Positions 18,095-54,645 of a DNA stretch of 64,000 nt are shown one piece after another (position 1 is the stretch's first letter; each line of letters opens with the position of its first letter). The notes beneath the pieces were generated by a model. That model was not told the origin of the DNA and searched no databases. It was given only the letters and a program-made list of their open reading frames with translations. This DNA comes from an uncultured Bacteroidales bacterium (lineage in GTDB: Bacteria > Bacteroidota > Bacteroidia > Bacteroidales > UBA932). Location of the stretch: NCBI GenBank assembly GCA_944322925.1, contig CALUQM010000008.1, forward strand, positions 9,073 to 73,072, read 5' to 3'. The translations under genes and the position numbers were made by a program.

Positions 18095-18119
18095 CCCTTT
18101 AGGGGAATTTCATTCAGGC

Positions 18120-20709: not shown

Positions 20710-20720
20710 GAAGTTGCGAT

Positions 20721-24934: not shown

Positions 24935-24963
24935 TTATAATAAATATTTTCTGTTCAAGCAGG

Positions 24964-24992
24964 CAAAGATAGTAAAAATCTGAGTATTTTTG
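24964..24992. promoter_or_regulatory. Back-to-back -7 promoter elements for DUF2723 (minus) and SUI1 operon (plus)
   Basis: TATCTTTG on minus 24964-24971; TATTTTTG on plus 24985-24992. Confidence 0.65.
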
Positions 24993-25029
24993 CGGAAACG
25001 GAAATGCTTGTCGCTTAAAACAGATACAA

Positions 25030-25374: not shown

Positions 25375-25375
25375 A

Positions 25376-26005: not shown

Positions 26006-26006
26006 T

Positions 26007-26747: not shown

Positions 26748-26749
26748 AG

Positions 26750-27130
26750 ATGGTTTCGGACGTACCGCGCAACACTCTGCCGAAAGAAGAAAGGCTGTAC
26801 GGCAAGAAAGACATCAGCAGGCTTCTTGCCCGGGGGAAATATCGTGTCTGCAGAAATATCAGGTATTGTTTCTCTGCCGGGAACGGGACGGGCCGCAACA
26901 GAATCATGGTTTCGGTTTCCAAAAAACTTTTCAGGCGCGCCGTAAAACGCAATCTTCTGAAAAGAAGAATCCGCGAGAGCTACAGGCTGCAGAAGCATGT
27001 TCTGCCGGCAGAATGCGCGACAGACATTTTTTTCATATACAACAGCAAAGAGATATCCGCCACTCCGGAAATCCGTGCCGAAGTAGGAAAGATACTCGAG
27101 ATGATCGGAAATGAGGTCAGGAAAGATTAG
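26750..27130 (+). CDS. rnpA: Ribonuclease P protein component
   Basis: [35 protein letters not shown] (RNR motif). Confidence 0.95.
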
Positions 27131-27483: not shown

Positions 27484-28203
27484 ATGCCGCAAAAAGAGAA
27501 AATACGCCGGATGTTCGACAATATCGCTCCGGATTATGACAGACTGAACCATATTCTTTCACTCGATATCGACCGGATATGGAGGAAAAAGGCCGTAAGG
27601 GAAATTGCAGACGGTACCGCTCCTGTGGAAGTTCTGGACGTAGCCTGCGGCACAGGTGATTTTTCCATTGCGATAGCACGGAAAGCGGCTCCCGGCAGCA
27701 GAATTACCGGAATAGACCTTTCCGAGGGAATGCTCGACGGTTTCCGGGCCAAGGCAGAGGCTGCCGGCCTGAATGAAATCATTGCCATGGAGCAGGGTGA
27801 CTGCGAGAATCTCGGATTTCCCGACAATTCCTTCGACAGGGTTACCGTAGCTTTCGGAGTACGGAATTTCGAGAATCTCGCGGCAGGACTCAGGGAGATG
27901 TACCGCGTCCTGAAACCCGGAGGCAAGACCGTGATTCTGGAGCTTTCAGTACCCGGCAATCCTGTTTTAAGATTCCTTTACAAATTGTATTTCCTGCATG
28001 TCCTGCCTGCGATAGGAGGCCTTGTTTCGGGCAACAGGGGAGCATATATGTATCTGCCTGCATCGGTGCTGAAATTCCCGAAACCGCAGGTTTTCATGGA
28101 TATGATGTCCTCGTGCGGTTTCAGGAATGTCCGGGGGAAAGCCTTTACCTTCGGCATCTGCCGGATGTATGTCGGGGCGAAGGATATTACCGGTATTCGA
28201 TGA
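27484..28203 (+). CDS. menG: Demethylmenaquinone methyltransferase (UbiE/MenG)
   Basis: MFDNIAPDYDRLNHILSL.ID..WRK, VLDVACGTGD, VAFGVRNF, LKPGGK..ILELS. Confidence 0.95.
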   Translation: MPQKEKIRRMFDNIAPDYDRLNHILSLDIDRIWRKKAVREIADGTAPVEVLDVACGTGDFSIAIARKAAPGSRITGIDLSEGMLDGFRAKAEAAGLNEIIAMEQGDCENLGFPDNSFDRVTVAFGVRNFENLAAGLREMYRVLKPGGKTVILELSVPGNPVLRFLYKLYFLHVLPAIGGLVSGNRGAYMYLPASVLKFPKPQVFMDMMSSCGFRNVRGKAFTFGICRMYVGAKDITGIR

Positions 28204-31200
28204 ATATCTCGTCTATGTTCGGGGCTAAATCCGATACTGCAGTCAGTTTTATGTTGTTGGCGCCAGTGTACAGCGGAATGGAGGCTTCCTTGTACTGCCA
28301 GTCCGAATCTGCGCTTCCGGTGTCTGTGAATTCCAGTTTCTTCGAAAACTCCCCGTTGTTCTGAAGTTCCAGTACGGTTGCCCCCGAATCCAGCTGCTGC
28401 GAGTACCTGATTCTCAGTGTAGCCTGCATCGGCGCTCCGTCATTCTCCTGATACCATGTTATGCTGCTTCCCTTTCCCTTGAACTGGACGAAGCCTGCCC
28501 CGTTTACATTGTCTCCGCTCGTATTTCTGACCGCGGCCCTGTCGAGAACGGCATATTCGGCCTGCAGACCTTCGTTTTCACAGACGTTTTCGCCCGGAGT
28601 CCCCCAATACAGTCCGGTCCCGTCTCCGAATGTCTCTTCAAGTCTCAGTTCCATTCCGTTCCTGTCCGTCACGAGAGCCTTTACAGTCGTGTTCGCACTT
28701 ACTCTGAACGGCCTTTCATAAAGAGGGGAGCCCTGATCCGGTTCCGAGCCGTCTGTAGTATATCTGACGGTGAACCTGCCGCCTTTCGTTTTCCCTGTCG
28801 CAAGGCTGATCCTGTGTATGCTGACAGTCACGGTATCCGATATTTTCAGGCTCCGGTCCCCGTTGATGCAGGCTGCTGTCAGCACGCCTTTCCCCTGCGG
28901 GTTTCGTATGAATGCACGGCACAGTCCGAAGAACGCCCTGCGGGATGAGGATCTGAAATTGCATGTCGTATCCACCGGATTCCCGTTTTCGAAAGAGAGT
29001 ACTTCTGCGCCTTCGGGGATGTCGATGTATATCCTGTTGTCTCCGTACGGAAACATGGTGCCGGTCTTGTCGGTTGTCATGAACGTTACGATGTCCGTAT
29101 CTCCCGCATCGCAGTCCTTTACGATTCCGAAATCATATCCCGTACCGGATGTCCTGACTGATGCCGACCCTGTCTCCCTGCCATTCCTGTATGCCTTGAC
29201 CGAAATGACCCCCGGTTTCCACGGAACTTTCCATTCGCACTGCATTTCATTCCATCCCTTACCCTTTTTTCTGATTCCGAGCGATTCCCCGTCGAAGAAC
29301 AGTTCTGCCGAATCGCCGGTAGTGTAGACCCATACCGGGATCATTGTCCCCGGTGCCATATCCGGGTGAGTCCAGTGCGGGAGGATATGGACCATGTCGA
29401 GATCATTTTCGCGCCACTGGCTCTGATACAGATAATAATGGTCTTTCCGGAAACCGGCGAGATCTATCACTCCTCCCATGAAGGCCCTGAACGGCCATCC
29501 TCCGTGAACATATCCGGCTTCTCCGAGATAGTCGAACCCTGTCCATCTGAAATGCCCCGAATACCAGAGCAGATCCCGCAGAAAAGCCATGTTGTGGCGG
29601 GCTGTCAGCCGGACTGTCGCATTGTCGTATGAAGAATTGAAAATCTGCTTTACGTTTCTTCTGTTTTGCGGGGATGTCCAGTCATAGCCGAAGATTTCCT
29701 TTTCCGTAAGGTCGGGGATTTCGAACGGAGCCTGCCATTTGTTCGGATAACCGTCCCTGTACCATGTCTTTGTCCTGTAATAGCCCCTGACCTGCCATGT
29801 GTGCGGGGTCTCGGTTCCTATAAATGCCTTCCCGTCAGGCCGGTAATCCTTGAAAAACGTCTGTTTTTCGGAATTTCCGTTTACTCCGAGTACGTCCATG
29901 AATTCGGAACCTGAATGCCCGGAAGTCACCATCCTGTCAGGGTCTTCCTCGTGACAGACCCTGACCAGATCTGCCGCCACATCGCCTCTGGTCTCATTCC
30001 CCATGCTGTATATGAATACGCAGGGATGGTTTCTGTCCCTTCTTATGAAATCTCTCAGATCCCGTTCCCACCACTCGGCGAAGGCCTGTGCCCCGTAATC
30101 GTGTTCGGCTTTCTGTTTCCATCCGTCGAAGATTTCGTCCATTACGAGGATCCCCATTTCATCGCACAGATCATAGAAGAAAGGAAGCTGGGGATTATGG
30201 GCCGTCCTGATGGCATTGCAACCCATATCCTTGAGCAGGCCGAGTTTCCAGCGGAGCAGTTCCCTTGTCCACATGGCTCCGACAGGGCCTCCTTCGAGAT
30301 GTTCGCATACGCCTCTGAGCTTTATGTTTTTTCCGTTCAGGAAAAATCCTTTTTCCGCATCCCATCCGATTGTCCTGAATCCGAATCTTATGCTTTCCGT
30401 GTCGCAGACTTTTCCTTTGCCGTTTTTCAGCCGGATTTCCAGTTCGTAGAGCGAAGGGGAGCCCGGGCTCCACAATTCCGGTTCCCGTACACTAAGGTGC
30501 AGGATGCCTCTGTCTCCGGAAACCTTGTCCGAGACCCTTCTTCCGTTTTTCTTTACGACGGCTTCCGCTGTCCCCGTCCCGCCTTCAAGAGTGTAGGACA
30601 CCGCCACGTCCCACTGCCCCGAATCCGTTTCATGAGTGCGCAGATGTATTCCGTCCTTTGTGAAATGCAGGATATTTTCAGTCCTCAGGCAGACAGAGCC
30701 GTAGATCCCGCAGCCATGATACCATCTCGCGCTCGGCTCGAGGGAATTGTCCACCCTGACGCTTATCACATTGTCGCCTTTCCTGACATACCGGCTGATA
30801 TCGTAGCTGAAACTTATGTATCCGTAAGGACGTTTCCCGAGATATTGCCCGTTGATCCAGACTTCGCTGTTCATATATACGGCATCGAAATCGAGATAGT
30901 ATTTTCTGTCCCTGCCTGCGTCAGGAATACCGATGTGTTTCCTGTACCAGCCGATTCCGCCTCCGGCATACCCTCCCCTGTCTTTCTGTGCCCCGTTTCT
31001 GGAAAATCCGTTTTCAAAGGCCCAGTCATGCGGGAGGTCGAGTTCCCTCCAGGAGGAATCGTCATATTCGGGATCGGCTGCTTCAGGCACATCGGAAAGT
31101 TTGAAAAGCCAGCCTTTCCCGATATCCGCGGCACCGGCTCCGGCTCCGGACATGTCCGGCATTGTCATGAATATCGTGAATACTATGGAAAACAGCAGAC

Positions 31201-31213
31201 GGGAATATTTCAT
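28187..31213 (-). CDS. GH2 beta-galactosidase-like enzyme with FN3-associated module and C-terminal CBM35/CBM6-like module
   Basis: Signal peptide; LDLPHDWA, NSEVWING, RWYHGCGIYG, AIRTAHNP, SMGNET, FRWTGFDYLGEA; YTTDGSEP module; C-terminal beta-sandwich ending APNIDEIFIEYR. Confidence 0.9.
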   Translation of the reverse strand: MKYSRLLFSIVFTIFMTMPDMSGAGAGAADIGKGWLFKLSDVPEAADPEYDDSSWRELDLPHDWAFENGFSRNGAQKDRGGYAGGGIGWYRKHIGIPDAGRDRKYYLDFDAVYMNSEVWINGQYLGKRPYGYISFSYDISRYVRKGDNVISVRVDNSLEPSARWYHGCGIYGSVCLRTENILHFTKDGIHLRTHETDSGQWDVAVSYTLEGGTGTAEAVVKKNGRRVSDKVSGDRGILHLSVREPELWSPGSPSLYELEIRLKNGKGKVCDTESIRFGFRTIGWDAEKGFFLNGKNIKLRGVCEHLEGGPVGAMWTRELLRWKLGLLKDMGCNAIRTAHNPQLPFFYDLCDEMGILVMDEIFDGWKQKAEHDYGAQAFAEWWERDLRDFIRRDRNHPCVFIYSMGNETRGDVAADLVRVCHEEDPDRMVTSGHSGSEFMDVLGVNGNSEKQTFFKDYRPDGKAFIGTETPHTWQVRGYYRTKTWYRDGYPNKWQAPFEIPDLTEKEIFGYDWTSPQNRRNVKQIFNSSYDNATVRLTARHNMAFLRDLLWYSGHFRWTGFDYLGEAGYVHGGWPFRAFMGGVIDLAGFRKDHYYLYQSQWRENDLDMVHILPHWTHPDMAPGTMIPVWVYTTGDSAELFFDGESLGIRKKGKGWNEMQCEWKVPWKPGVISVKAYRNGRETGSASVRTSGTGYDFGIVKDCDAGDTDIVTFMTTDKTGTMFPYGDNRIYIDIPEGAEVLSFENGNPVDTTCNFRSSSRRAFFGLCRAFIRNPQGKGVLTAACINGDRSLKISDTVTVSIHRISLATGKTKGGRFTVRYTTDGSEPDQGSPLYERPFRVSANTTVKALVTDRNGMELRLEETFGDGTGLYWGTPGENVCENEGLQAEYAVLDRAAVRNTSGDNVNGAGFVQFKGKGSSITWYQENDGAPMQATLRIRYSQQLDSGATVLELQNNGEFSKKLEFTDTGSADSDWQYKEASIPLYTGANNIKLTAVSDLAPNIDEIFIEYR

Positions 31214-31225
31214 GTCATCGGGTTT

Positions 31226-33661
31226 TTATCGGCATTCGATTTTTATTGTAGCTTCCGGCAGTCCGGCGCTCCTGACTTTCAGAGTGATATCTCCGGCTTT
31301 GCGGCTTTTGCCGGTGACAGCCATGCATTTTCCGCTGAAGGTGTGCATGGACTTGCCGTAGAAGCTTTCGAGAGAGGTGGGGTCTCCGTTGCATAGGGCC
31401 AGAAAATCTCCTCCGGAAACTTCGAATTCGAGAGGAACTGCGGCATCCGGACATAATGTACCGTCTTTGTCCACGACGGAGACTTCTATGAACGAGATGT
31501 CCTTGCCGTCGGCATCGATTTCAGTCCTGTCGGCCTGCAGTTCCAGAGCATACGGCTCTCCGGCAGTCCGGACAGATGTCTCGGCAGCTATGTTTCCGTC
31601 CTTGTCGTATGCAAGGGCCTGCAGGGTCCCCGGTTCGTATTTCACACCATCCCAGACAATCCTGTACCCTGAAGTTTTCCCCGAGGCGGTCTTGTCTTTC
31701 TTTCCAAGGCTTCTGCCGTTGAGGAACAGTTCCACTTCATCGTAGCTGGTATAGCAATGTACGGGAACCGTGTCCCCTTCCTCCCAGTTCCAGTGCGGAA
31801 GCAGATGGAGTACGGGTTTTCCGCTCCACCGGCTCTGGTACAGGTAGAATCTGTCTTTTTTCATGCCGGCCAGGTCGACTATTCCGAAATATGAACTGCG
31901 TGAGGATACCGTTTCGTTGTAAGGAGTAGGCTCTCCGAGGTAGTCGAATCCTGTCCAGACGAATTCTCCGGCAACAAAGCTGTTGTCATCCTGCCCCTTG
32001 AATTCAGTATCGGGTGTAGACGCCCATGCAGGATATTCGAGATCGTATGAAGAGCAGTGGAAATCGGGATGGAAAGGATGTTTCGTCTCTATGGCCGGAA
32101 TATGGTATTTGCCTCTCGAACTTACGGTGGATGCGGTTTCCGACCCGAATATGCAATAGTCAGGATGCTTTTCATGCACATCTCCGTAGGCGAAAGGCTT
32201 GTAGTTGAATCCGACGACGTCGAGGACTTCTCCAAAACCGTTCGCCAAGGCATCGGCATATTTGTTCAGACCTGCCGTTACAGGTCTTGTTGGATCTTCC
32301 CGATGGCAGATGTCTGTCAGGAACCGGGCGACTTTGACACCGTCTTTGTAACCCTGTTCCTTGATTTCATTGCCGATACTCCATAATATTATGGAAGGAT
32401 GATTCCTGTCCCTGCGGATCATGCTGACAAGGTCTTTTTCAGCCCATTCGTCGAAAAGACCGGCGTAGCCGTTCCTGTTTTTTCCGATTTTCCATTCATC
32501 GAAGCTCTCGTCGATGACGAGGAATCCCATTCTGTCGCAGAGGTCGAGGAGTTCCGGCGCCGGAGGGTTGTGCGATGTGCGGATGGCATTGCAACCCATT
32601 TCCTTCATTATCTCAAGCTGTCTTTCGATGGCCCGTCTGTTGACTGCGGCGCCGAGAGGCCCGAGGTCATGGTGCAGGCAGACTCCCTGCAGCGGTACGC
32701 GCCTTCCGTTTAGAGAAAATCCGTTGTCGGGATCGAAGCCGAATGTTCTTATTCCGAAAGGAGTTTCGTATTCATCGAGGATCCTGTCTCCGGAGACGAT
32801 CCTGCTCACGGCAGTGTACATCGCCGGGTCTTCTATGTCCCATTTGCGGATATTGTCGAGGCTGACAGTCTGTTCCAGGGTGGAAATATCCGTGCCGTCC
32901 GGCAGCGGCGTTTCCGAGAAAGCGGCTTCCATGCCCGAAGGATCGATGATTGTCGTGACAAGTTTGCAGCCGTTGCCGTATCCGGTATTTTCGACGGTCG
33001 TCCTGATATTGACCGAGGCTGTGTTTTCTCCGACTTCAGGTGTCGTGACATACGTTCCCCAGTGGGCGATGTGTACAGGCTGGAGTACGACAAGACGCAC
33101 ATTCCTGTAAATGCCTGCTCCGGGATACCATCTCGAAGATTCACCCTTGTTTTCAAGCCTTACCGCAAGGATATTCTCCTGTCCCGGCCCGATGTACTCC
33201 GTGATGTCGAAAGCAAAGGAGCTGTACCCGTAAGGCCGTTTGCCGACAAGCTCGCCGTTGACATATACTTCGGCGTGGCTCATTGCTCCGTCGAATTCTA
33301 TCCTGTAGCGCCGGCCCTTGTCCGCAGTAAGTTCGCCCAGGTCGTATCTGTACCAGCCTGTTCCTATGAACGGGAGGGCTCCTGTCCTGCCCGTCCTGAG
33401 TTTCTTCACCTTGTCCCCGTCTTCAGATACTTTTACGACCTGGGCGTCTATATCCATGTCGAACGGGCCGGCAATGGCCCAGTCATGAGGCACCGAGACT
33501 GTTTCCCATGCCGAATCGTCGTATCCGGGCATGGCTGAAGACGGATTGTCTTCCCTCGTAAATTTCCATCCTTCATCGAGGAGGCGCGTTTCCCTGCCGG
33601 TTTCGGGAGAGACGCATGATGCCAGCGCTATGATTGCCAGGCAGTATATCAGATGTTTCAT
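31226..33661 (-). CDS. GH2 beta-galactosidase-like lipoprotein
   Basis: Lipobox LASC; SVPHDWAI, SSRWYPGAGIYRNV, AIRTSHNPP, WSIGNEI, GSETAS, VWTGFDYLGEPTP. Confidence 0.93.
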   Translation of the reverse strand: MKHLIYCLAIIALASCVSPETGRETRLLDEGWKFTREDNPSSAMPGYDDSAWETVSVPHDWAIAGPFDMDIDAQVVKVSEDGDKVKKLRTGRTGALPFIGTGWYRYDLGELTADKGRRYRIEFDGAMSHAEVYVNGELVGKRPYGYSSFAFDITEYIGPGQENILAVRLENKGESSRWYPGAGIYRNVRLVVLQPVHIAHWGTYVTTPEVGENTASVNIRTTVENTGYGNGCKLVTTIIDPSGMEAAFSETPLPDGTDISTLEQTVSLDNIRKWDIEDPAMYTAVSRIVSGDRILDEYETPFGIRTFGFDPDNGFSLNGRRVPLQGVCLHHDLGPLGAAVNRRAIERQLEIMKEMGCNAIRTSHNPPAPELLDLCDRMGFLVIDESFDEWKIGKNRNGYAGLFDEWAEKDLVSMIRRDRNHPSIILWSIGNEIKEQGYKDGVKVARFLTDICHREDPTRPVTAGLNKYADALANGFGEVLDVVGFNYKPFAYGDVHEKHPDYCIFGSETASTVSSRGKYHIPAIETKHPFHPDFHCSSYDLEYPAWASTPDTEFKGQDDNSFVAGEFVWTGFDYLGEPTPYNETVSSRSSYFGIVDLAGMKKDRFYLYQSRWSGKPVLHLLPHWNWEEGDTVPVHCYTSYDEVELFLNGRSLGKKDKTASGKTSGYRIVWDGVKYEPGTLQALAYDKDGNIAAETSVRTAGEPYALELQADRTEIDADGKDISFIEVSVVDKDGTLCPDAAVPLEFEVSGGDFLALCNGDPTSLESFYGKSMHTFSGKCMAVTGKSRKAGDITLKVRSAGLPEATIKIECR

Positions 33662-33698
33662 GGCTGTTGTTTTTTGTCCGTTGACATGCTGTGTTTCA

Positions 33699-35120
33699 TT
33701 AAAGGCTTCCGAATCCGTCGAAATCCCAGATCGGATTGGCAGTTCTGGAAGAGTCCATCAGTTTTTTCAGTTTTTTTGCCAGTCTCGGATGAGATGAAAT
33801 GACATTCTCCGTTTCGCTTTCATCTTTTTCGAGATTGTACAATTCGTAATACGCCTTTTCAGGGGTCTTGCTGTCCAGTTCCACGAGTTTCCATCCGTTT
33901 CTGATGATGGCGCGTTTCCCTCCCTTTTCATGGAATTCGTAATACAGGAAGTCATGCTTTTTCTGATGCCCCTTTCCCGTCAGGCTCGGCAGATATGATA
34001 TTCCGTCCGTGTCTTCAGGTATTTCCGCACCGGTTATCTCGCAGACAGTAGGCATGAAGTCCCAGAATGCGGAAATATGGTCGGAGACCGTACCGGCCTC
34101 TATGACAGCCGGCCATTGGGCGACAAAAGGAGTATGGATGCCTCCGTCATACAGGTCTCTTTTCTTGCCTCTGTATATGGAATTGCTGTCGAAAAATTCA
34201 GGATCATGCCCTCCCTCGGAGTGGACTCCGTTGTCCGAAGAAAAGATTACAAGCGTATTTTCGTAGACACCCTTTTCTTTCAGCAGGTCCACGAGCCTGG
34301 CAATGTCCCTGTCGAGCCGGCTTACCATTGCGGCGTATGCAGCCCTCGGCTTAGGCTGGCTCTTGTATCCCTTGCCGTCCTTCGATCTGTTGACGAACGG
34401 GGTTTCCTTGAATTTCCCGTCATATTCTCCAAGATCAGGTACATCGAGATCGGCATGAGGGATAGTCGGGGTCAGATAGAGGAAGAAAGGGGTCCCTGCC
34501 GTCCTGTCGACAAAATCCAACGCCTTCTCCATGATCATGTCATGGGAATAGACCTTGTGGTCGAGGTAGACTTTCTCTCCGTTTTCCCACAGATAGTCGG
34601 GATAATAACTGTGCGCCCTGCCCTGTCCGAGATAACCGAAGAAATAATCGAATCCCTGCCTGTTCGGCTCGCCCTCGTTTCTCGGACCGCCGAGTCCCCA
34701 TTTGCCGACACAGGCGGTAACATAGCCTCTGGTCTTGAGGATTTCCGCTACAGTGACCTCTTCATCGGCAAGAGGCCAGTCGTATGAGTTCCCGTCGTAT
34801 GCCGCCTTGCCCTTGTTGCCTCTGATGAAGCTGTGTCCGGTGTGTTTCCCTGTCATAAGGACGCACCTTGACGGTGCGCTGACGGTCGAACCTGAATAAT
34901 GGCTCGTGAACAGGATTCCGTTTTCGGCGATATTGTCGATGGCCGGGGTCTTTATGTCTTTCTGTCCGTAGCAGCCGAGATCTCCTATGCCGAGATCGTC
35001 CGCAAGAATGAAAATCACATTCGGCAGGCCGGGTGCGGTATTCCGGTCATGGCTTTGGGCCGCCGATATTCCTATCGAGGCGGGCAGCAGTATTGCTGCA
35101 GGTAAAATGTTTTTGAGCAT
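33699..35120 (-). CDS. Ser-type sulfatase (S1, resembles S1_20)
   Basis: PNVIFILADDLG, STVSAPSRCVLMTGKH (S-x-P-x-R), GKWGLG, FSSDNG, KRDLYDGGI. Confidence 0.93.
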   Translation of the reverse strand: MLKNILPAAILLPASIGISAAQSHDRNTAPGLPNVIFILADDLGIGDLGCYGQKDIKTPAIDNIAENGILFTSHYSGSTVSAPSRCVLMTGKHTGHSFIRGNKGKAAYDGNSYDWPLADEEVTVAEILKTRGYVTACVGKWGLGGPRNEGEPNRQGFDYFFGYLGQGRAHSYYPDYLWENGEKVYLDHKVYSHDMIMEKALDFVDRTAGTPFFLYLTPTIPHADLDVPDLGEYDGKFKETPFVNRSKDGKGYKSQPKPRAAYAAMVSRLDRDIARLVDLLKEKGVYENTLVIFSSDNGVHSEGGHDPEFFDSNSIYRGKKRDLYDGGIHTPFVAQWPAVIEAGTVSDHISAFWDFMPTVCEITGAEIPEDTDGISYLPSLTGKGHQKKHDFLYYEFHEKGGKRAIIRNGWKLVELDSKTPEKAYYELYNLEKDESETENVISSHPRLAKKLKKLMDSSRTANPIWDFDGFGSL

Positions 35121-35137
35121 AACGGTTTCTTTTTCTA

Positions 35138-35295
35138 CAAATTTAAATTATAACGATTATTCTCCGGGGTAAAATTTCTGTCAAAAAATGGCATTAAATC
35201 TTATAACTTCCTTGAATTTTGTCGGTTTGAAACAAAATTGGCAGTTTTTTGACTGAAAAGAATATCCCGGGTATTTCAGGAAAAAAATATCTTTG
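35138..35295. promoter_or_regulatory. Divergent promoters, each with TTTTTTGACnGA whose GAC ends 34 nt upstream of the -7 element
   Basis: Minus: TAAATTTG 35138-35145 with motif C at 35180; plus: motif C at 35253 with TATCTTTG 35288-35295. Confidence 0.7.
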
Positions 35296-35306
35296 AAACA
35301 AAAAAA

Positions 35307-36506: not shown

Positions 36507-36516
36507 CATGTCGCGT

Positions 36517-38866: not shown

Positions 38867-38881
38867 TGCATGCGGCGATTA

Positions 38882-40876: not shown

Positions 40877-41058
40877 GTTCATCAGGAAAAGATTAAACAG
40901 CTTCATGACAAAAGTACGAATCAGAAAATTGAAAAACGTGTAAAAAATTTTCAATAATTGCATATAATTTTTCCAAAAAGACAAAAAGGCGACCGGGAGC
41001 ATTAAATTTTGTTATTTTTACAATCGCATAACCGATAATCGCGAACTGTTCCGATATT

Positions 41059-45159: not shown

Positions 45160-45165
45160 CCGGTA

Positions 45166-45216
45166 TATTTTGACCGATTTGTGACCATAGAAAAAGGGTG
45201 CCATTGTTTAATTTTG
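45166..45216 (+). promoter_or_regulatory. Promoter with TATTTTGACCGA motif and TAATTTTG -7 element
   Basis: Motif C at 45174, -7 element 45209-45216, gap 34 nt identical to the two promoters at 35.1-35.3 kb. Confidence 0.7.
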
Positions 45217-45241
45217 CATTGAACGATAAAATCTTCTGACT

Positions 45242-46672: not shown

Positions 46673-49098
46673 AAAAGATATTGCTTGCCCTGTCGGTACT
46701 TCTTGCAGGCGTTGTGGCCGCAAATGCCCAGATTACTTTCGGAACACCTGTCAGGATAAATGACGGGTGGAAATTCCGCCTCGACTCCATCGCTGACTAT
46801 TCAGGCGTAAAAGTCCGCAATTCCGGATGGCGGACAGTGAATCTTCCGCACGACTGGAGTGTGGAAAGCTGCATGTCCGATGAATATTACAGTTGTACCG
46901 GGTATCTTCCCGGCGGCATCGGATGGTACAGGAAGTCTGTGACGATACCCGAGTCTGAATCCGGGAAAAAACAGTATCTGTATTTCGGTGGCGTCTATTG
47001 CAACAGCGAGGTATGGGTCAACGGACACAAGGCCGGTTACCGGCCGAACGGATATGTTTCCTTCATTTATGATATCACACCTTATGTGAAATTCGGCGGC
47101 GAAAACGTCATTGCCGTAAAAGTGGACCATTCCGACCAGGCAGACTCCAGATGGTACACCGGATCCGGAATCTACCGCGACGTCTTCCTCGTATCGAGCG
47201 GATATGTCCATATCGACAACTGGGGGATTTTCGTGAAGACGGCTTCCGTAAAGTCAGGAGTGGCCGAACTCGATGTCACTCTTAAACTCGTCAATGAGAC
47301 GGACGCCGATGCCGCCCTTACCGTAAGGCATTGTCTTTACAGAAAGGGAGGCTCCGACGTAGTGGCTTCCGCGGCTTCGGAAGTCACGGTATCCGCCGGC
47401 GGGCGGGCTGAGGACTATTGCCGGATTTCGGTTCCTGATCCGAAACTGTGGAGCGTGGACGAGCCTTCACTTTACCGCCTCGAGACGACAGTTACCGACA
47501 CTGACGGGAACTTCGTCGACGGGACCACGACAGTTACCGGAATCAGGACCGTAAGGTTCGATGCGGACAAGGGCCTTTTCCTCAACGGAGTAAACATGAA
47601 GATGAAGGGAGTCTGCCTGCACCATGATGCGGCGTCTCTCGGGGCCGCAGTGCCTGAAAGCGTGTGGAGAAGGAGGCTGATGACCTTGAAGGAGCTGGGA
47701 GTCAACGCGATAAGGACAAGCCACAACATGCAGGACGAAATGTTGTACGACCTGTGCGACGAACTCGGTTTCCTGGTCAAGGACGAAGCCTTCGACGAAT
47801 GGGAATTCCCCAAGAGAAAATGGCTCATAGGGTGGAACGTAGGCAAGAATCCGGGATTTCAGGGATATGCGGAATATTTCGAGGAATGGGCGGAACAGGA
47901 TCTCAGGACAATGGTGGAAAGGGACAAGAACCACCCGTCGGTAATCTTGTGGAGCATAGGCAATGAGGTCGATTATCCGAATGACCCTTATTCTCATCCG
48001 ATACTTGACAAGGAAGGCATAAACCAGAAGACGATTCCGGGGTACAAGCCGGAAAAGCCCGCTGCGGAAAGAATAGGTTTCATTGCGGAGAGATTCGTGA
48101 AAATCGTCAAGGAGATAGACACTTCAAGAGCCGTTACCGGTGCCATGGCCGGCGTGGTAATGTCCAATTACACCAAATATCCGTATGTTCTCGACGTGAC
48201 AGGCTACAATTATACCGAAAGCCGGTATCAGTCCGATCATCTCCAGTATCCCGAAAGGATAATTTACGGTAGCGAAAACAGGCATCCGTATCCGGACTGG
48301 ACTGCCGTCAGGGACAATGAACACATATCCGGACAGTTCCTGTGGACAGGGATAGACTATCTCGGGGAAGCCGGACGTTTTCCGTCGAGAGGAATGGCGG
48401 CAGGCCTTCTCGACCTCGGAGGTTTTGTAAAGCCGAGAGGAATGTACCGAAAGACCCTGTGGTCCGACGAGCCGGCTGCGTATGTCGGAACGATAAGGAA
48501 AGACAGAATAAGGAAGAATACCGCCTATTTCGACCTGGAACCGGTCTGGAATTATGAACCCGGCGATACTGTCAGGGTAGCATCCTTCTCGAACTGCGAC
48601 TATTCGAGGCTGCTTGTCAACGGAAAGGAAATAAATGCCGCACCGGGATATGACGCCAATTCGAATTCCCTTTTCTGGGATGTCGTCTATGAACCCGGGA
48701 CGCTGAGGCTGGAAACCTGGTCCAAGGACGGTTCCGCCACCGGCTATGAAATCAGGACCTACGGCCGCCCTGTGAAACTGGTCGCGTTTGCCGACCGTCT
48801 GACCATGTCTGAAGGCGGTGACGTGGTTCATGTCGAGGTCAATTTCGTGGATAAGAACGGCACAAGGGTGCTCGATGCCATGGACGATGTAAAATGCACG
48901 GTGGAGGGTGCCGGAGAGCTGCTGCGTCTCGAGAATGCGTCTCCGAAATACACCGGACCTTATATTACGGATTCTATGCCGATGTACAGGGGGCGTATTC
49001 TGGCATACGTGAAATCTTCCGACAGGCCCGGTGCGGTGACAGTCAGATTTACGGCAGAGACTGGTGAAGAATGTTCAGTGAAAATCAATGTAAGGTGA
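46669..49098 (+). CDS. GH2 beta-galactosidase-like enzyme
   Basis: NLPHDWSVE, DSRWYTGSGIYRDV, AIRTSHN, WSIGNEVD, GSENRH, LWTGIDYLGEA. Confidence 0.93.
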   Translation: MKKILLALSVLLAGVVAANAQITFGTPVRINDGWKFRLDSIADYSGVKVRNSGWRTVNLPHDWSVESCMSDEYYSCTGYLPGGIGWYRKSVTIPESESGKKQYLYFGGVYCNSEVWVNGHKAGYRPNGYVSFIYDITPYVKFGGENVIAVKVDHSDQADSRWYTGSGIYRDVFLVSSGYVHIDNWGIFVKTASVKSGVAELDVTLKLVNETDADAALTVRHCLYRKGGSDVVASAASEVTVSAGGRAEDYCRISVPDPKLWSVDEPSLYRLETTVTDTDGNFVDGTTTVTGIRTVRFDADKGLFLNGVNMKMKGVCLHHDAASLGAAVPESVWRRRLMTLKELGVNAIRTSHNMQDEMLYDLCDELGFLVKDEAFDEWEFPKRKWLIGWNVGKNPGFQGYAEYFEEWAEQDLRTMVERDKNHPSVILWSIGNEVDYPNDPYSHPILDKEGINQKTIPGYKPEKPAAERIGFIAERFVKIVKEIDTSRAVTGAMAGVVMSNYTKYPYVLDVTGYNYTESRYQSDHLQYPERIIYGSENRHPYPDWTAVRDNEHISGQFLWTGIDYLGEAGRFPSRGMAAGLLDLGGFVKPRGMYRKTLWSDEPAAYVGTIRKDRIRKNTAYFDLEPVWNYEPGDTVRVASFSNCDYSRLLVNGKEINAAPGYDANSNSLFWDVVYEPGTLRLETWSKDGSATGYEIRTYGRPVKLVAFADRLTMSEGGDVVHVEVNFVDKNGTRVLDAMDDVKCTVEGAGELLRLENASPKYTGPYITDSMPMYRGRILAYVKSSDRPGAVTVRFTAETGEECSVKINVR

Positions 49099-49102
49099 AA
49101 CT

Positions 49103-51388
49103 ATGAAGAAAGGATTGTTTCTGACAGGCGCATTCGCGGTTTCGGCAATGTACCCGGGAGGTGCGGTGGCCGGAACAGGGAGTCAGGATGAAAACCGGGA
49201 CCTGCCCAATGTGGTGGTTTTCCTCGTAGATGACATGGGCTGGATGGATTCTTCGTGCTACGGCAGCAGATTCTATCGGACCCCGAACATGGAAGCTCTT
49301 GCCGAAAGCGGGCTGATGTTTACCGACGCTTATTCGGCCTGCACGGTGAGCTCTCCGACAAGGGCCGCCCTGATGACGGGAAAATATCCGGCACGGCTGC
49401 ATCTTACCGATTTCATTGCCGGGCATAATTTCGCCTGGGCCAGGATGTCTCCTCCGGACTGGAGAAAATATCTTCCGCTGGAAGAAGTCACGATCGCCGA
49501 AATATTGAAAGATGCAGGGTATGCGACATGGCATGTCGGCAAATGGCATCTGGGGCAGGAGGAAAAATATTATCCTCAGAACCAGGGATTCGACATCAAT
49601 ATCGGCGGATGCGGAATGGGTGCTCCCGGCCAGCCGGGCCCGCGCACCAAAGGCTATTTCTCACCGTACGGGGTCCAGTACAATCTTGCCCCGGGACCGG
49701 AAGGGGAATATCTTACCGACCGCCTGACCGACGAGGCTCTCAGGCTGATACGTGGCAGGGACAGAAGCAAGCCTTTTTACCTGAACATGGCACACTACGC
49801 CGTCCATACTCCGCTTCAGGCAAAGCAGGATAAGATAAGTAAATACGAGGCGCTTGCCGATTCCTCGTATTTCCAGAAGAATGCGGTCTATGCCGCCATG
49901 ATAGAAAGCATGGATGAAAGTCTGGGCAGAATCAGGGCTGAACTCGAAAAGGAAGGCATAGCGGACAACACACTGTTTATCTTTGCTTCCGACAACGGAG
50001 CTCTTTACAGTGTTTCCGAAAGTCATCCTCTGAGAGCCGGAAAGGGCTCTGAGTTCGAGGGCGGCATCAGGACACCGCTGATAATATCATGGCCGGGGCA
50101 TATAGAGCCGGGCACGGTTTCACATGAACCTGTCATTACGATGGACATTCCTGCGACTCTGATGGACATGGTCGGCTACCGGCCTGAAGGTGCCCTGGAC
50201 GGCAAGTCGCTGATGCCGGTATTCGAAGGGAGGAAACTGAAGAAACGTCCGCTGTTCTGGCATTATCCCCATTATCACTTCGCAAAGCCGTTTTCTTCCA
50301 TGCGTCTGGGGGACTGGAAGCTCATCGAAATGCTTGAAGACAACTCCTTGATGCTTTTCAACCTGAAGAATGATATCGGGGAGACAGAGAACCTGGCCGG
50401 GAAATACCCGAAGCGTACAGCTGAAATGTATGCGATGCTTTCCGCATGGAGAGATTCGGTAGATGCGCAGTATCCTGTTCCCAATCCGGATTATGATCCC
50501 GCCCGGGCAGACAAAAAGGCTCCCAAAGGCAGAAAACAGCCGGACAGGAAGATCTCTTCCGCAATTTTGCCGGTGACTCCTCCGACAGAAAGATACACCC
50601 TCGATACCGCCGCAGTGCCGAGCGCGGTTTACCGTAAGGACCCGGATCTGAAAATGTATTTCATGTACCCTGAAAATCTCGGCAGGAATGAGTTGAGGCC
50701 GGCTATCGTCTTCTTTTTCGGAGGCGGATGGGTCAGCGGCTCGGTCAATGCGTTCGCCATGCAGGCGAAAGCACTGTCGGAGAGGGGCATGGTAGCGGTC
50801 CTTGCCGACTACAGGACGAAAAACAGGTACGGCACTCCTCCGACAGCATGCGTGGAAGATGCCAGATCAGCCATGCGCTACCTGAAAATCCATGCTGCAG
50901 AACACCACATCGACACGACGATGCTGGCTGCCGGAGGCGGATCGGCCGGGGCTCATATTGCTGCGGCTACCGCTTTTGTCAAAGGATTCGACTCCCCGGA
51001 CGATGACCTGTCCGTCTCGCCGGTTCCCAAGGCTCTCGTACTTTTCAATCCGGTTTTCAATAATGCTCCGGCTCCGGAAGGCTGGGGATATGAAAGAGTC
51101 AGGGATTGTTTCCCGGAGATTTCCCCGGCCCATAACATAGCACCGGGCGCCCCTCCTGTACTGATACTTCTCGGTACGAATGACAAGAACGTCCCTGTAT
51201 CCACAGCGGAAGCCTTCAAGGCTGAAATGGAGAAATGCGGGTCCAGATGCGATCTGGAACTGTATGAGGGGGCCGAACACGGGTTTTTCCATTTCAGTCC
51301 GAAACGGACCGGTGACAAGGATTTCTACACCAGGACCCTGACGCGGACCATTGAATTCCTTTTTTCTCTCGGGTATATAAAGAATTAA
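49103..51388 (+). CDS. Sulfatase (resembles S1_16) fused to C-terminal alpha/beta-hydrolase esterase
   Basis: VSSPTRAALMTGKYPARL sulfatase core; then FFFGGGW, ADYR, GGSAGAH, GTNDKNV, AEHGFF esterase triad in one open frame. Confidence 0.9.
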   Translation: MKKGLFLTGAFAVSAMYPGGAVAGTGSQDENRDLPNVVVFLVDDMGWMDSSCYGSRFYRTPNMEALAESGLMFTDAYSACTVSSPTRAALMTGKYPARLHLTDFIAGHNFAWARMSPPDWRKYLPLEEVTIAEILKDAGYATWHVGKWHLGQEEKYYPQNQGFDINIGGCGMGAPGQPGPRTKGYFSPYGVQYNLAPGPEGEYLTDRLTDEALRLIRGRDRSKPFYLNMAHYAVHTPLQAKQDKISKYEALADSSYFQKNAVYAAMIESMDESLGRIRAELEKEGIADNTLFIFASDNGALYSVSESHPLRAGKGSEFEGGIRTPLIISWPGHIEPGTVSHEPVITMDIPATLMDMVGYRPEGALDGKSLMPVFEGRKLKKRPLFWHYPHYHFAKPFSSMRLGDWKLIEMLEDNSLMLFNLKNDIGETENLAGKYPKRTAEMYAMLSAWRDSVDAQYPVPNPDYDPARADKKAPKGRKQPDRKISSAILPVTPPTERYTLDTAAVPSAVYRKDPDLKMYFMYPENLGRNELRPAIVFFFGGGWVSGSVNAFAMQAKALSERGMVAVLADYRTKNRYGTPPTACVEDARSAMRYLKIHAAEHHIDTTMLAAGGGSAGAHIAAATAFVKGFDSPDDDLSVSPVPKALVLFNPVFNNAPAPEGWGYERVRDCFPEISPAHNIAPGAPPVLILLGTNDKNVPVSTAEAFKAEMEKCGSRCDLELYEGAEHGFFHFSPKRTGDKDFYTRTLTRTIEFLFSLGYIKN

Positions 51389-51400
51389 CCACATACTGTC

Positions 51401-53254
51401 ATGAACCCTAAAATAATCCTTTCCGCCGGTCTTCTTCCGGCAGCAGCGGCCTCCGTTTCAGGAGCCGTTCCGAAATCGGAGCGTCCGAACATAGTCTTTT
51501 TCATGGCGGAAGACCTTGCAAGAACCTGTTTCGAACTGTATCAGGGCTATGGGGCCAAAACACCCTTCCTTGAGGAAATGGCCGGGCACGGGGTAGTATT
51601 CAACAACGCCTATTCAAATGCTCCCGTAAGTTCCGCAGCCAGGAGTTCTGTCATAACGGGCTGTTATGCTCCGGCATACGGCCTGTCCTCACACAGAAAA
51701 CTCGAGCCTGTCGTACTGCCGGAAAACATCTGGCTTTTCCCCCACTATCTCAGGGAAGCGGGATACTTTACCACCAATGCTTCCAAGACTGACTATAACT
51801 GCGTGATGGACAAGCAGGCCTGGGATCTCGTGAAAGGCAAGATGGGAGACTGGCGCAGGAGAAATTCTCCGGACCAGCCGTTCTTCCACTGTTTTTCGAT
51901 CAACGCCTGTCATGAGAGCTGCCTCCATTTCCCTGATTCCGACCTCGGTACGATCCCGACGGAGCATGATCCGGATTCTGTCAGACTTTATCCGTTCCAT
52001 CCGGATACGGAACTGTTCAGATATACATACGCCAGGCTGTACGACAAGATAAAATACGTGGATTCCGTCCTCGGGGAAATGCTTGCAATGCTCCGGGAAG
52101 ACGGTCTGCTCGACAATACCTTTGTGTTCTACATGGGCGACAACGGCGGATGCGTTCCGTTTTCGAAAAGCTATACCAACGAGCAGGGCCTGAATGTTCC
52201 GCTTGTGGTGTATATTCCGGACAACTGGAAAGATGACGTAGCCTATGCCGCCGGTGACAGGGCGGACGGTTTCGTGGAGTTCCTCGACCTTGCGCCTACC
52301 GTCCTTGCCCTTGCAGGCATAGATGTCCCGGGCCACATGGACGGAAGATCCTTCCTCGGACCTGAAATCAGCCGCGAGGACGTCGAATCCAGGGATGTGG
52401 TATTCTGCTACGGAGACCGTTTCGATGAACTCTATGCAGTGAACAGGACTGTCCGCAAGGGAGATTTCAAATATTCGAGGAACTATCTTCCCCATCAGCC
52501 TAAGGGAATGTTCTGCGCCTACCGTTACAAGCAGGCCGCATTCAGACAGTGGCGGGAAATGTTCGACAACGGGGAACTCGATGACATTCAGAGCGCCTTT
52601 TATCTCCCGCAGGGGGCAGAGGAGCTTTACGATCTTTCCTCCGATCCGTACGAGACTGTCAATCTTGCCGGGGATCCTGCCTTTGCCGGAAAACTGGAGG
52701 AGATGCGCGGTCTTCTGAAAGACAGGATAATGTCCGAGCAGGACCTTGTCCTGGTGCCTGAAGCATTCTGGCTGGACCACACGGACGACATTGTCGGCTT
52801 CAGGGAAAGCATCGGCAACAGACTGGGAGAATATTATGATGCTGCGGAACTGGAAAGAGGCCCGTTCCGCAAAGTCCATAAGGAAATCCGTGCCGCTCTG
52901 GACTCCGATGACCCGATAGTAAGATACTGGGCCGTTACGGCCTGCTGCGGTTTCGGAAAAGAGGCCCGCAGTCTGGAAAAGGAGATCAGGTCTCTTCTCG
53001 AGGATGACTGCACTGTCGTGAAAAGCCGTGCTGCCCTGTATTGTGTTGCAAACGGAATGGATGTGCCGGACAATGTCTTCAAGACCGCCCTTGCATCCTC
53101 TGAAAACGAAGCCGCCACACTGATGGTCCTGAACGATATGGCTTTTCTTTATGAAAATGTCGGAGGTTTCAGTGAAGAAATTTCCGAAATAGATCTGAAA
53201 TACCTGCCTAACGCCTACGGCGAAAGACTCAAATTCTTTAAAAGACACAAATGA
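51401..53254 (+). CDS. Ser-type sulfatase (S-x-A-x-R variant, resembles S1_8) with C-terminal HEAT-like extension
   Basis: PNIVFFMAEDL, PVSSAARSSVITG, KTDYN, MGDNGG; tail DSDDPIVRYWAVTA...DCTVVKSRAALY. Confidence 0.88.
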   Translation: MNPKIILSAGLLPAAAASVSGAVPKSERPNIVFFMAEDLARTCFELYQGYGAKTPFLEEMAGHGVVFNNAYSNAPVSSAARSSVITGCYAPAYGLSSHRKLEPVVLPENIWLFPHYLREAGYFTTNASKTDYNCVMDKQAWDLVKGKMGDWRRRNSPDQPFFHCFSINACHESCLHFPDSDLGTIPTEHDPDSVRLYPFHPDTELFRYTYARLYDKIKYVDSVLGEMLAMLREDGLLDNTFVFYMGDNGGCVPFSKSYTNEQGLNVPLVVYIPDNWKDDVAYAAGDRADGFVEFLDLAPTVLALAGIDVPGHMDGRSFLGPEISREDVESRDVVFCYGDRFDELYAVNRTVRKGDFKYSRNYLPHQPKGMFCAYRYKQAAFRQWREMFDNGELDDIQSAFYLPQGAEELYDLSSDPYETVNLAGDPAFAGKLEEMRGLLKDRIMSEQDLVLVPEAFWLDHTDDIVGFRESIGNRLGEYYDAAELERGPFRKVHKEIRAALDSDDPIVRYWAVTACCGFGKEARSLEKEIRSLLEDDCTVVKSRAALYCVANGMDVPDNVFKTALASSENEAATLMVLNDMAFLYENVGGFSEEISEIDLKYLPNAYGERLKFFKRHK

Positions 53255-54645
53255 TGACCGGACATCTTGCATCTTCTGTTACGGTGTGCGCAGCAGGTCT
53301 TGCCGCCGTGACTTCATGCGGTCAGAATGCCGGAAAATCCGGCTCCGACCTGCCGAACATAGTTTTTATCCTGGCGGATGACATGGGAATAGGCGATGTC
53401 GGCTGCTACGGGCAGCGGATGATCGAAACCCCGAACATCGACGCCCTTGCAGATGCGGGAGTCCGATTCACCTCGCATTATGCCGGCTCGACGGTAAGCG
53501 CGCCTTCCAGATGCTGCCTGATGACGGGCAAGGACACCGGACACTCGTGGGTGCGCGGCAACAAAGGTTCCGGCGGTTTCGATTTCCCTCTGGCATCGGA
53601 AGAGGTCACGGTGGCCGAGATATTGAAAGCCAGGGGCTATGCCACTGCCTGCGTCGGGAAATGGGGCCTCGGCGGAATAGGGGCGGAAGGGCATCCCAAC
53701 AATCAGGGCTTCGATTATTTCTTCGGATATCTCGGGCAGGGAGCTGCACATAACTATTATCCGGACTACCTGTACGAAAATTCGGAAAAGGTCATGCTCG
53801 ACGGCAAGGTCTACAGCCATTTCATGATAGTCGAGAAAGGTCTGGACTTCATAAGGCGGCACAGCGACGGGCCGTTCTTTGCCTATTTCGCAGTCACTCC
53901 TCCCCATGCCGATCTCGACTATCCTGATATCAGCCGGTATGAAGGCCGCTTCGAGGAAGTCCCTCATGTCAACAATACGAAAAACGGAAGAGGCTACAAG
54001 AGCCAGCCGAAACCGAGGGCGACTTACGCCTCCATGGTATCGGAAGTAGACAGCAATGTCGGCAGTGTCGTGTCATTACTCGACGAACTCGGTATTCTCG
54101 ACAATACCATAGTAATATTCTCTTCCGACAACGGCGTACATTGCGTAGGCGGCCACGACCCTGATTATTTCGACAGCAACGGACCGTTCAGGGGGTACAA
54201 GCGCGATCTTTACGAAGGCGGGGTGCGTACTCCTTTCGTCGTGAGGTGGGACGGCCATGTAGCTCCTGGTTCCGAGACGGACCATATTTCGGCATTCTGG
54301 GATTTCCTGCCGACGGTATGCGACATTGTAGGGGCTGAAGTTCCCGATTCGACAAACGGTATTTCATACCTGCCGACCCTGACAGGTGTCGGGAAACAGG
54401 CTGAACATCCATTCATTTACTATGAATTTTATGAAAAGGGAGGCAAGCAGTCCATCCTCAGGGACGGGTGGAAACTTGTGCGTCTGAACATGAGCAAACC
54501 GGAAAAAATCGTGGAGGAACTATATTATCTGCCGGACGATATCTCCGAACAGAATGATCTGGCCGGACAATATCCTGAAAAGGTGGCCGAACTCAGAGAT
54601 CTGGCACAGTCCCACAGGGAGGAAAGTCCGGTCTTCAAATGGTGA
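53251..54645 (+). CDS. Ser-type sulfatase lipoprotein (resembles S1_20), paralog of 33699-35120
   Basis: Lipobox VTSC; STVSAPSRCCLMTGKD, GKWGLG, FSSDNG, KRDLYEGGV. Confidence 0.93.
   Translation: MMTGHLASSVTVCAAGLAAVTSCGQNAGKSGSDLPNIVFILADDMGIGDVGCYGQRMIETPNIDALADAGVRFTSHYAGSTVSAPSRCCLMTGKDTGHSWVRGNKGSGGFDFPLASEEVTVAEILKARGYATACVGKWGLGGIGAEGHPNNQGFDYFFGYLGQGAAHNYYPDYLYENSEKVMLDGKVYSHFMIVEKGLDFIRRHSDGPFFAYFAVTPPHADLDYPDISRYEGRFEEVPHVNNTKNGRGYKSQPKPRATYASMVSEVDSNVGSVVSLLDELGILDNTIVIFSSDNGVHCVGGHDPDYFDSNGPFRGYKRDLYEGGVRTPFVVRWDGHVAPGSETDHISAFWDFLPTVCDIVGAEVPDSTNGISYLPTLTGVGKQAEHPFIYYEFYEKGGKQSILRDGWKLVRLNMSKPEKIVEELYYLPDDISEQNDLAGQYPEKVAELRDLAQSHREESPVFKW

Follow-up and report, generated by a model that had tools for sequence, protein, structure and literature searches.

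The carrageenan regulon of Zobellia galactanivorans combines a polysaccharide utilisation locus (PUL) that has no susCD genes with a distal susCD pair that other Bacteroidetes carry within the PUL itself (Ficko-Blean et al. 2017, PMC5698469). Here we analysed a 64,000-nt stretch of contig C8 (henceforth the window) of an uncultured Bacteroidales bacterium, whose genome (G000) is a 2.25-Mb metagenome-assembled genome (MAG) of 78 contigs and 94% completeness. The sulfatase-rich locus found in it (positions 28187-54645; henceforth the C8 locus) has in common with the Zobellia regulon that it is an apparent sulfated-galactan PUL without susCD, that it combines sulfatases with glycoside hydrolases of family 2 (GH2), and that it encodes an AraC-type DNA-binding regulator. 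By analogy, the C8 locus and a transporter-bearing region on contig C23 of the same genome appear to belong to the distal-susCD kind of regulon already known from Zobellia. Specifically, we consider it probable that the C8 locus is the half of a split PUL which carries the regulator and the periplasmic enzymes, and that it forms one regulon with C23 under a hybrid two-component system (HTCS) protein. Orthology, synteny and a shared promoter architecture are what we observed; HTCS binding and co-induction are what we infer from them. The two systems also differ: the regulator is a full HTCS here and a stand-alone AraC protein (CgrA) in Zobellia, there are two tandem SusC/D pairs, the host is an uncultured gut member of the Bacteroidales with a small genome, co-induction is a prediction here, and carrageenan-specific families (GH16, GH82, GH127, GH129, GH150 and GH110) are not present.

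Three further systems are close to the C8 locus (see Table 1 for gene names). In Bacteroides thetaiotaomicron, mucin O-glycan sulfatases of S1_20 (BT1636/BT1622), S1_16 (BT3057/BT3796) and S1_15 represent the subfamilies that hold the closest solved relatives of the S1_20, S1_16-like and S1_15 sulfatases described here; the Q..H dyad which makes the S1_20 enzymes selective for galactose (Gal) is conserved, one S1_20 copy (Sulf6) is a lipoprotein, in parallel to the surface location of BT1636, and that species is known to supplement PULs with orphan sulfatase genes. The sequence similarity is only moderate (best PDB matches of 345-375 bits), and an S1_8-like pair and GH51-like, GH43 and GH105 enzymes are found instead of the mucin enzymes GH20, GH29/95, GH33 and GH16, none of which turned up in the C8 locus or in the examined C23 genes. 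In the lambda-carrageenan PUL of the gammaproteobacterium Pseudoalteromonas distincta, S1_8C is an exo-acting beta-Gal-2-sulfate sulfohydrolase which unblocks GH2 action by removing the 2-sulfate from terminal beta-Gal (bioRxiv 10.1101/2025.01.09.632246). This enzyme is the best solved relative of Sulf2/Sulf5 (with a match of only 230 bits), and its order of sulfatase first and GH2 second is the logic that we propose for the C8 locus, from which the GH150 and GH110 of that PUL are absent. Finally, a B. xylanisolvens PUL (SusC WP_122271082) with the order Sulf-DUF4971-GH2-Sulf-Sulf(HEAT)-GH43-Sulf(S1_20-like)-SusC-SusD-SusC-SusD-BT3987-like-GH43-Sulf is 48-72% identical to GH2c, Sulf5, Sulf1, the S1_15 sulfatase and SusC/D here; unlike in G000 it is contiguous, and no regulator was seen within 10 kb of it. 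In the searchable literature we found no substrate for this PUL and no characterised equivalent of the PUL type, of DUF4971 or of Cryptobacteroides sulfatases.

Gene calls were based on a listing of open reading frames (ORFs) and on Pfam and NCBIfam scans. The C8 locus comprises 13 intact genes, organised as four enzyme operons around one HTCS gene, and encodes three GH2 enzymes, six S1 sulfatases of the serine type, two esterase domains, one phosphoesterase, one GH51-like hydrolase and the HTCS, whose sensor, kinase, receiver and AraC helix-turn-helix (HTH) domains all lie within one ORF. Signal peptides of the signal peptidase I (SPI) type were found in 11 of the 13 proteins, with lipoboxes in GH2b and Sulf6, and all assigned enzyme families are exo-acting, a combination that would fit a periplasmic stripping module. 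Compared with a canonical PUL in the PULDB sense, the C8 locus has the co-localised CAZymes and the dedicated sensor/regulator and lacks the adjacent susC/susD-like pair: no SusC or SusD was found in the 64-kb window, where every large ORF was assigned to other families, and 0 of the 36 genome matches to TIGR04056 (SusC) fall on contig C8. The original prediction, made from the window alone, had given the same gene counts, with the GH51-like enzyme as an unassigned GH-A member, had named menG and the gene for an RlmI-like methyltransferase as convergent housekeeping bounds, and had placed the missing importer elsewhere in the genome. Its counts proved exact, its boundaries and the lack of SusC/D were confirmed, and its interpretation as a periplasmic stripping module fed by a remote importer is supported; the search for an importer led to C23.

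Orthologues of the HTCS (48-67% identity) were found solely in syntenic loci, which came from metagenome assemblies and from two congeneric GTDB genomes, of which one is named Candidatus Cryptobacteroides sp. (locus L052). In three of these other genomes (L048, L049 and L052), orthologues of the distal susCD genes sit inside the locus. Sulf6 is directly followed by SusC-SusD-SusC-SusD and a BT_3987-like protein in L046/L048; the SusC/D block lies with BACON and unknown proteins upstream of the GH51-like gene in L047/L049; and transporter and locus genes are interleaved in L052 (SusD2-304aa-LRR-GH51-like-phosphoesterase-Sulf2-HTCS-...-552aa, where LRR stands for leucine-rich repeat and the 552-aa protein is a DUF4971 lipoprotein). 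The corresponding C23 genes (SusC1, SusD1, SusC2, SusD2 and the 304-aa protein) are 82-90% identical to those of L048, with the next-best SusC in the genome at 49%. Genome comparison thus gives strong support to an importer encoded away from the C8 locus.

The promoters may link the two halves further. In three promoters of the C8 locus, TTGAC(A/T/C)GA precedes a TAnnTTTG -7 element by exactly 31 nt, and the Sulf2-esterase promoter has ATTGAAAAT at 30 nt, where L045 and L046 have ATTGAA at equal spacing. Within diverged flanks, a T-rich TTGA(C/A) box has been kept at a fixed spacing in the orthologous promoters of L045, L046 and L047, and TTTGAC together with ATTTG..CCAT is kept in all three at the Sulf3 promoter. 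The SusC1 promoter of L048 reads TTGAAAGAAAAA-N-TAAATTTG, and the identical 12-mer is found at equal spacing before GH105-SusC1 on C23; the operon promoter of L068, a C23-type operon in another assembly, reads TTTTTTGAAATA-N31-TATATTTG and keeps the box at the fixed spacing too. A TTGA(C/A)nGA box precedes all four C8 operons and the C23 SusC operon. Across the 2.25-Mb genome, TTGAnnGA-N30/31-TAnnTTTG has five sites, compared with a background of ~0.55 per neighbouring offset (1121 -7 boxes): three in the C8 locus, one before GH105-SusC1 (C23:19514-19560) and one at another PUL, on contig C2 (C2:101304). The box lies ~17 nt upstream of the canonical -33 TTTG position (peak at offset 22), which would fit an activator site. 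To our knowledge, few HTCS binding sites have been defined.

The C2 site raises the question of whether remote import is served by the tandem SusC/D PUL of that contig (SusC genes at 101402-104236 and 106005-109028) and not by C23. The original prediction had put forward a scan with the stricter core TTTTGACnGA, which alone matches the genome 27 times and in combination with the -7 box retains the three local sites plus C2, C9, C18 and C50. In this form the scan pointed to a C2 SusC, and C23 came up only with the looser core TTGAnnGA; the strict motif was rejected. The C2 site (C2:101302-101349, TTTTGACGGA-N30-TATTTTTG), at the first promoter of the PUL, has a TGAC..TGAC direct repeat like that of the Sulf3 promoter, and the C2 PUL (94124-121581) holds a GH51-like paralogue (117 bits) and a sulfatase. 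This PUL, however, has its own HTCS (114557-118579), whose HTH domain shares 34% identity with that of the C8 HTCS, and its SusC/D proteins are 29-35% identical to those linked to the orthologous loci, compared with 82-90% for C23, so that we regard C2 as a decidedly unlikely importer. Cross-talk might account for its motif, as might a type of promoter that this HTCS subfamily has in common. A comparison of the HTH domains of four HTCSs was tried as a test of operator sharing and dropped as uninformative (31-43% identity).

The split is not peculiar to G000. In the closest species (L045/L066/L067) the locus is likewise SusC/D-less, with enzymes 64-83% and the HTCS 67% identical, and abuts the same TMEM260 block as in G000, the block being inverted between both genomes; the L068 operon lies beside nadABC. 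The SusC/D-less split form is stable: at least two species have kept it, with the locus at an unchanged place in the chromosome. Such persistence would also suit a self-contained, SusC/D-independent form of periplasmic scavenging, in which small sulfated oligosaccharides set free by other members of the community enter via unrelated porins or TonB-dependent transporters, the HTCS controls the four local operons only and C23 is an independent PUL; the exo-type C8 enzymes with their periplasmic signal peptides, and the sulfatases and glycoside hydrolases that C23 owns, are compatible with it. We consider this scenario unlikely, given that the orthologous SusC/D block is physically within the locus in the three genomes above, that no complete HTCS was found on C23, and that the promoter of the C23 SusC operon has a locus-type box at the exact spacing. 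Since the more distant homologous PUL of Bacteroides (B. xylanisolvens), found widely in gut assemblies, is in one piece, contiguity looks like the ancestral state and the split form derived. The Sulf2-HTCS intergenic region of L052 (8830-10000, FUKU07) has extra sequence, at ~1.1 kb vs ~0.2 kb.

With 78 contigs and 94% completeness, the MAG itself invites the suspicion that the split is an artefact of assembly or binning, or that the locus decayed after losing its transporter. Both would be very improbable: the contig is continuous through both housekeeping flanks, the equal SusC/D-less layout recurs in independent assemblies, and 13 of 13 ORFs are full-length compared with their orthologues, with formylglycine (FGly) motifs and catalytic residues intact. 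Moreover, C23 carries the sole genome copies of nadA/B/C and fabD, single-copy core genes of the host, and its tetranucleotide composition is ordinary, which indicates that it belongs to the genome and that mis-binning is very unlikely.

Several points weigh against the split-PUL reading. That C8 and C23 occur together in one cell is deduced from the binning of a MAG, the proposed co-regulation rests on a short motif, and the relaxed form of this motif was fixed after the sites in related loci and on C23 had been seen. Since a perfect site is present at the C2 PUL with its own HTCS, the box is possibly shared by several HTCS paralogues and not necessarily specific for the C8 HTCS. The C23 junction upstream of SusC1 differs from that of L048 in having a GH105 gene and non-orthologous sulfatases, and C23 could be a separate PUL with another regulator. 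An endo-acting enzyme has not been firmly identified, and the predicted sulfatase specificities depend on homologues of 30-50% identity, with the subfamily of Sulf3 borderline.

Sulfatase subfamilies were called by best matches among all PDB chains. All six sulfatases have a Ser-type FGly motif (SxPxR, but SSAAR in Sulf5), and the genome encodes one anaerobic sulfatase-maturing enzyme (anSME; C3:37153-38301). The six make up three pairs, i.e., Sulf1/Sulf6, Sulf4-Est/Sulf3 (Sulf3 being weaker) and Sulf2/Sulf5. Sulf1 matched 7ANA (375 bits) and 7AN1 (345 bits) best, with the next subfamily below 200 bits; we take these chains, which are labelled generically, to be BT1622 and BT1636, the 3S-Gal(NAc) sulfatases of subfamily S1_20 from B. 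thetaiotaomicron. Sulf6 in turn matched Sulf1 with 650 bits. The published activity of S1_20 enzymes is on 3S-Gal/GalNAc, and their Gln/His dyad selects galacto-configured sugars. This dyad is kept in Sulf1 (GQGRAHSYYP) and Sulf6 (GQGAAHNYYP), where 7 of 10 positions in the region agree with the published S1_20 signature; proximity to characterised relatives, dyad and FGly motif together place both proteins in S1_20. Sulf4-Est is clearly S1_16 (9FO1, 449 bits; 6UST, 391; 7OZ9/7OZA, ~252), a subfamily whose characterised relatives act on 4S-Gal/GalNAc. Set against solved structures, the S1_20 and S1_16 calls of the original prediction stand, with Sulf3 borderline between S1_16 (9FO1, 245 bits; 6UST, 204) and S1_19 (186). 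The best PDB match of Sulf2 was 9BBA, 'S1_8C' (230 bits over residues 28-519), with S1_8A/B at ~157-160 bits and high divergence, and Sulf5 was placed as S1_8-like solely via its paralogy to Sulf2 (269 bits); homology of this pair points to action on 2-O-sulfate.

The three GH2 proteins all have the sugar-binding N-terminal, Ig-like and TIM-barrel domains of the family. GH2b passed the cut-off of 900 for NCBIfam NF041463 GalB with 948 bits, and the GalA/GalB-like match of GH2a fell below cut-off. The esterase half of Sulf4-Est matched 5AO9 (189 bits). This esterase domain swaps partner between loci: it is fused to the S1_16 sulfatase here and in L045, with a free copy beside Sulf2, and to the Sulf2 orthologue in L046 (7006-9798, 930 aa), where the S1_16 enzyme stands alone. 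The phosphoesterase, for which the PDB sequence search gave no relative, is present in two of four orthologous loci (L047 and L052, not L045/L046) and is an accessory gene. The GH51-like protein had no Pfam match above cut-off, and its sequence similarity to GH51 is confined to residues 63-200 (58 bits). In a Foldseek search with its AF2 model (pLDDT 92), the top matches were all GH51 arabinofuranosidases (TM 0.65-0.69, 14-19% identity), so that we call the enzyme distantly GH51-like; the fold agrees with the (beta/alpha)8 barrel plus C-terminal beta-sandwich of GH51, and E168 (WEIGNE; GNE acid/base) and E315 are invariant in 33 homologues, which are mostly annotated as hypothetical proteins and for which precomputed annotation lists PF22848.

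From the homologies above, a sequence of events can be proposed. The C23 half would capture, probably nick and import oligosaccharides, with a possible endo-enzyme at the surface. In the periplasm, exo-sulfatases for positions 2 (S1_8-like), 3 (S1_20) and 4 (S1_16-like) would act first, position 6 being desulfated by the C23 S1_15 enzyme; O-acetyl esterases would work alongside and the joint result would be an uncapped terminal galactose, whereupon the three GH2 beta-galactosidases and the GH51-like enzyme would strip sugars one at a time. A released oligosaccharide may be sensed by the HTCS, whose AraC-type domain would bind the TTGA(C/A)nGA box 30-31 nt upstream of TAnnTTTG. The substrate is predicted to be a beta-galactoside-rich glycan with O-sulfation at multiple positions and O-acetylation, for which a host-derived and a dietary origin are both possible. 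The enzyme mix, without GH16/20/29/33/95 and GH110/150/127/129 and with GH43, GH51-like and GH105 enzymes, matches the make-up of neither carrageenan PULs nor the classic PULs for mucin O-glycans. PDB searches did not narrow the substrate further, as they gave weak GH30-like matches only for the C23 552-aa lipoprotein and uncharacterised relatives for the C23 GH43 domain. It is conceivable, if rather unlikely, that the two loci form a full kit for 2-, 3-, 4- and 6-O-desulfation of Gal plus deacetylation and possibly dephosphorylation, with a single HTCS in control via a TTGAC operator at a fixed distance, and directed at an animal-gut sulfated glycan outside the characterised PULs. A multiply sulfated beta-galactan or arabinogalactan would be candidate targets and, more speculatively, so would the Gal-Gal-Xyl linkage region by which proteoglycans carry their chains, in its sulfated and phosphorylated form; the homologous PUL, widespread in human-gut Bacteroides, would then be an orphan system aimed at this glycan as well.

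The split-PUL reading has consequences for PUL prediction. Predictors anchored on susC/susD would miss the 13-gene, six-sulfatase C8 locus and would call the C23 transporter operon a regulator-less PUL; joining both halves supplies a concrete candidate for an HTCS operator. On this reading, PULs of gut Bacteroidales with reduced genomes can become fragmented and stay so, and the comparison flags a sulfatase-rich PUL family that is common in human-gut Bacteroides too and whose substrate, as far as the literature could be searched, we did not find described.

Table 1 Features of the C8 locus (positions in the window) and of the importer block on contig C23 (positions on that contig)
Feature	Positions	Strand or direction	Basis and remarks
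UbiE/MenG methyltransferase, housekeeping (left boundary)	27484-28203	+	PF01209 E=1e-63; convergent with GH2a
Sulf1-GH2b-GH2a operon	35120 to 28187	leftward	
GH2a, 1008 aa, Fn3_assoc/CHB_HEX_C tail, SPI signal	28187-31213	-	Pfam GH2 N/mid/TIM/DUF4982/C5
GH2b, 811 aa, GalB-type beta-galactosidase, lipoprotein signal (LASC)	31226-33661	-	Pfam, NCBIfam
Sulf1, S1_20-type, 473 aa, predicted exo 3S-Gal	33699-35120	-	PF00884; SAPSR FGly motif
Promoter, Sulf1-GH2b-GH2a operon	35138-35184	-	TTGACAGA-N31-TAAATTTG; box conserved in L045, L046
Promoter, phosphoesterase-GH51-like operon	35249-35295	+	TTGACTGA-N31-TATCTTTG
Phosphoesterase-GH51-like operon	35307-37959	rightward	
Secreted purple-acid-phosphatase-like metallophosphoesterase (Metallophos/Pur_ac_phosph_N), 399 aa	35307-36506	+	PF00149 1e-18, PF16656 8e-9
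Distant GH51-like clan GH-A hydrolase, 483 aa	36508-37959	+	fold, Foldseek, conserved Glu residues
Sulf2-esterase operon	40882 to 37904	leftward	
Free carbohydrate esterase (BD-FAE/Abhydrolase_3), 320 aa	37904-38866	-	NCBIfam PaeX/AxeA1-like, below cut-off
Sulf2, S1_8-like, ~666 aa, C-terminal extension, predicted 2-O-sulfatase	38882-40882	-	PF00884; SSPSR
Promoter, Sulf2-esterase operon	40909-40954	-	TTGAAAAT-N30-TACTTTTG, weaker box
HTCS sensor/regulator gene, 1366 aa	41059-45159	+ (rightward)	Reg_prop, Y_Y_Y, HisKA, HATPase_c, Response_reg, HTH_AraC
Promoter, Sulf3-GH2c-Sulf4Est-Sulf5-Sulf6 operon	45170-45216	+	TTGACCGA-N31-TAATTTTG
Sulf3-GH2c-Sulf4Est-Sulf5-Sulf6 operon	45242-54645	rightward	
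Sulf3, S1_16/S1_19-like, 476 aa, predicted 4S-Gal	45242-46672	+	PF00884; SAPSR motif
GH2c, 809 aa, beta-galactosidase-like	46669-49098	+	Pfam; NCBIfam GalA/GalB-like
Sulf4-Est, S1_16 sulfatase fused to BD-FAE/Abhydrolase_3 esterase, 761 aa	49103-51388	+	PF00884
Sulf5, S1_8-like, 617 aa, HEAT-like tail, SSAAR motif	51401-53254	+	PF00884; Sulf2 paralogue
Sulf6, S1_20, 464 aa, lipoprotein signal (VTSC)	53251-54645	+	PF00884; Sulf1 paralogue
RlmI-like SAM methyltransferase, housekeeping (right boundary)	54661-55593	-	convergent with locus
C23 sulfatase-GH43 fusion	540-2963	+	
C23 DUF4971/GH30-like lipoprotein, 552 aa	2973-4631	-	
C23 LRR protein	4638-6113	-	
C23 BT_3987-like surface protein, 304 aa	6141-7055	-	
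C23 SusD2	7068-8867	-	
C23 SusC2	8891-11977	-	
C23 SusD1	11971-13863	-	
C23 SusC1	13876-17055	-	
C23 BNR_4+GH105 fusion	17082-19463	-	
C23 S1_20 sulfatase	20021-21466	-	perfect agreement with published S1_20 signature
C23 S1_15 sulfatase	21476-23014	-	762 bits to 7OZC

The C8 locus lies between housekeeping genes, which are rnpA and menG on its left side and, on its right side, pgk and the gene for the RlmI-like methyltransferase. Where relatives lack the locus, this methyltransferase adjoins rnpA or TMEM260, and in G013, the closest relative with flanks, rnpA is directly beside it and UbiE/MenG is missing from the left-boundary position. A first sample of 18 other genomes of the genus gave no HTCS orthologue, and in a later sample of 400 an orthologue was lacking from 398; the locus is rare (3 of 401 sampled genomes, with only two candidates scored per genome). 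This rarity, together with the rnpA-methyltransferase junction of G013, indicates that the locus is an accessory insertion; an origin ancestral to the genus was rejected on the same grounds. The TMEM260-DUF4271-hemD-rnpA block (window 21830-27130) is inverted in G000 and G013 relative to most genus members (L033-L040), and one breakpoint of the inverted block falls on the edge of the sulfatase locus.

Two gene calls in the window were revised. A 264-aa ORF (35181-35975, minus strand), which has no Pfam match and runs opposite to the phosphoesterase gene, overlapping it and the intergenic promoter region, is almost certainly no gene, and the true start of ORF 38882-41002 is at ~40882/40876, downstream of its own -7 box.

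Contig C23 also carries a 342-aa ORF (32869-33897, minus strand) in which ~170 N-terminal sulfatase residues (SSPSR) are joined to an AraC HTH sharing 70% identity with that of an HTCS on contig C20; it resembles a deletion/recombination chimera or a remnant of a lost HTCS. Contig C20 itself (39 kb) holds, besides this further HTCS, a GH2, three sulfatases and a SusC, and is a compositional outlier (GC 0.452 vs ~0.50, with the largest tetranucleotide distance), so that recent acquisition or mis-binning is possible. Between the S1_20 sulfatase and GH105 genes of C23 (19600-19900) the stretch upstream of the promoter with the motif holds a GGTGAC...GTCACC hairpin and a long, near-perfect inverted repeat with arms of ~32 nt (GAACCATATTGTCGGGATGGCA...). 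L068 holds a similar GGGTGAC...GGGTCACCC hairpin, and these repeats could be a terminator or an element of the REP (repetitive extragenic palindromic) or MITE (miniature inverted-repeat transposable element) type.

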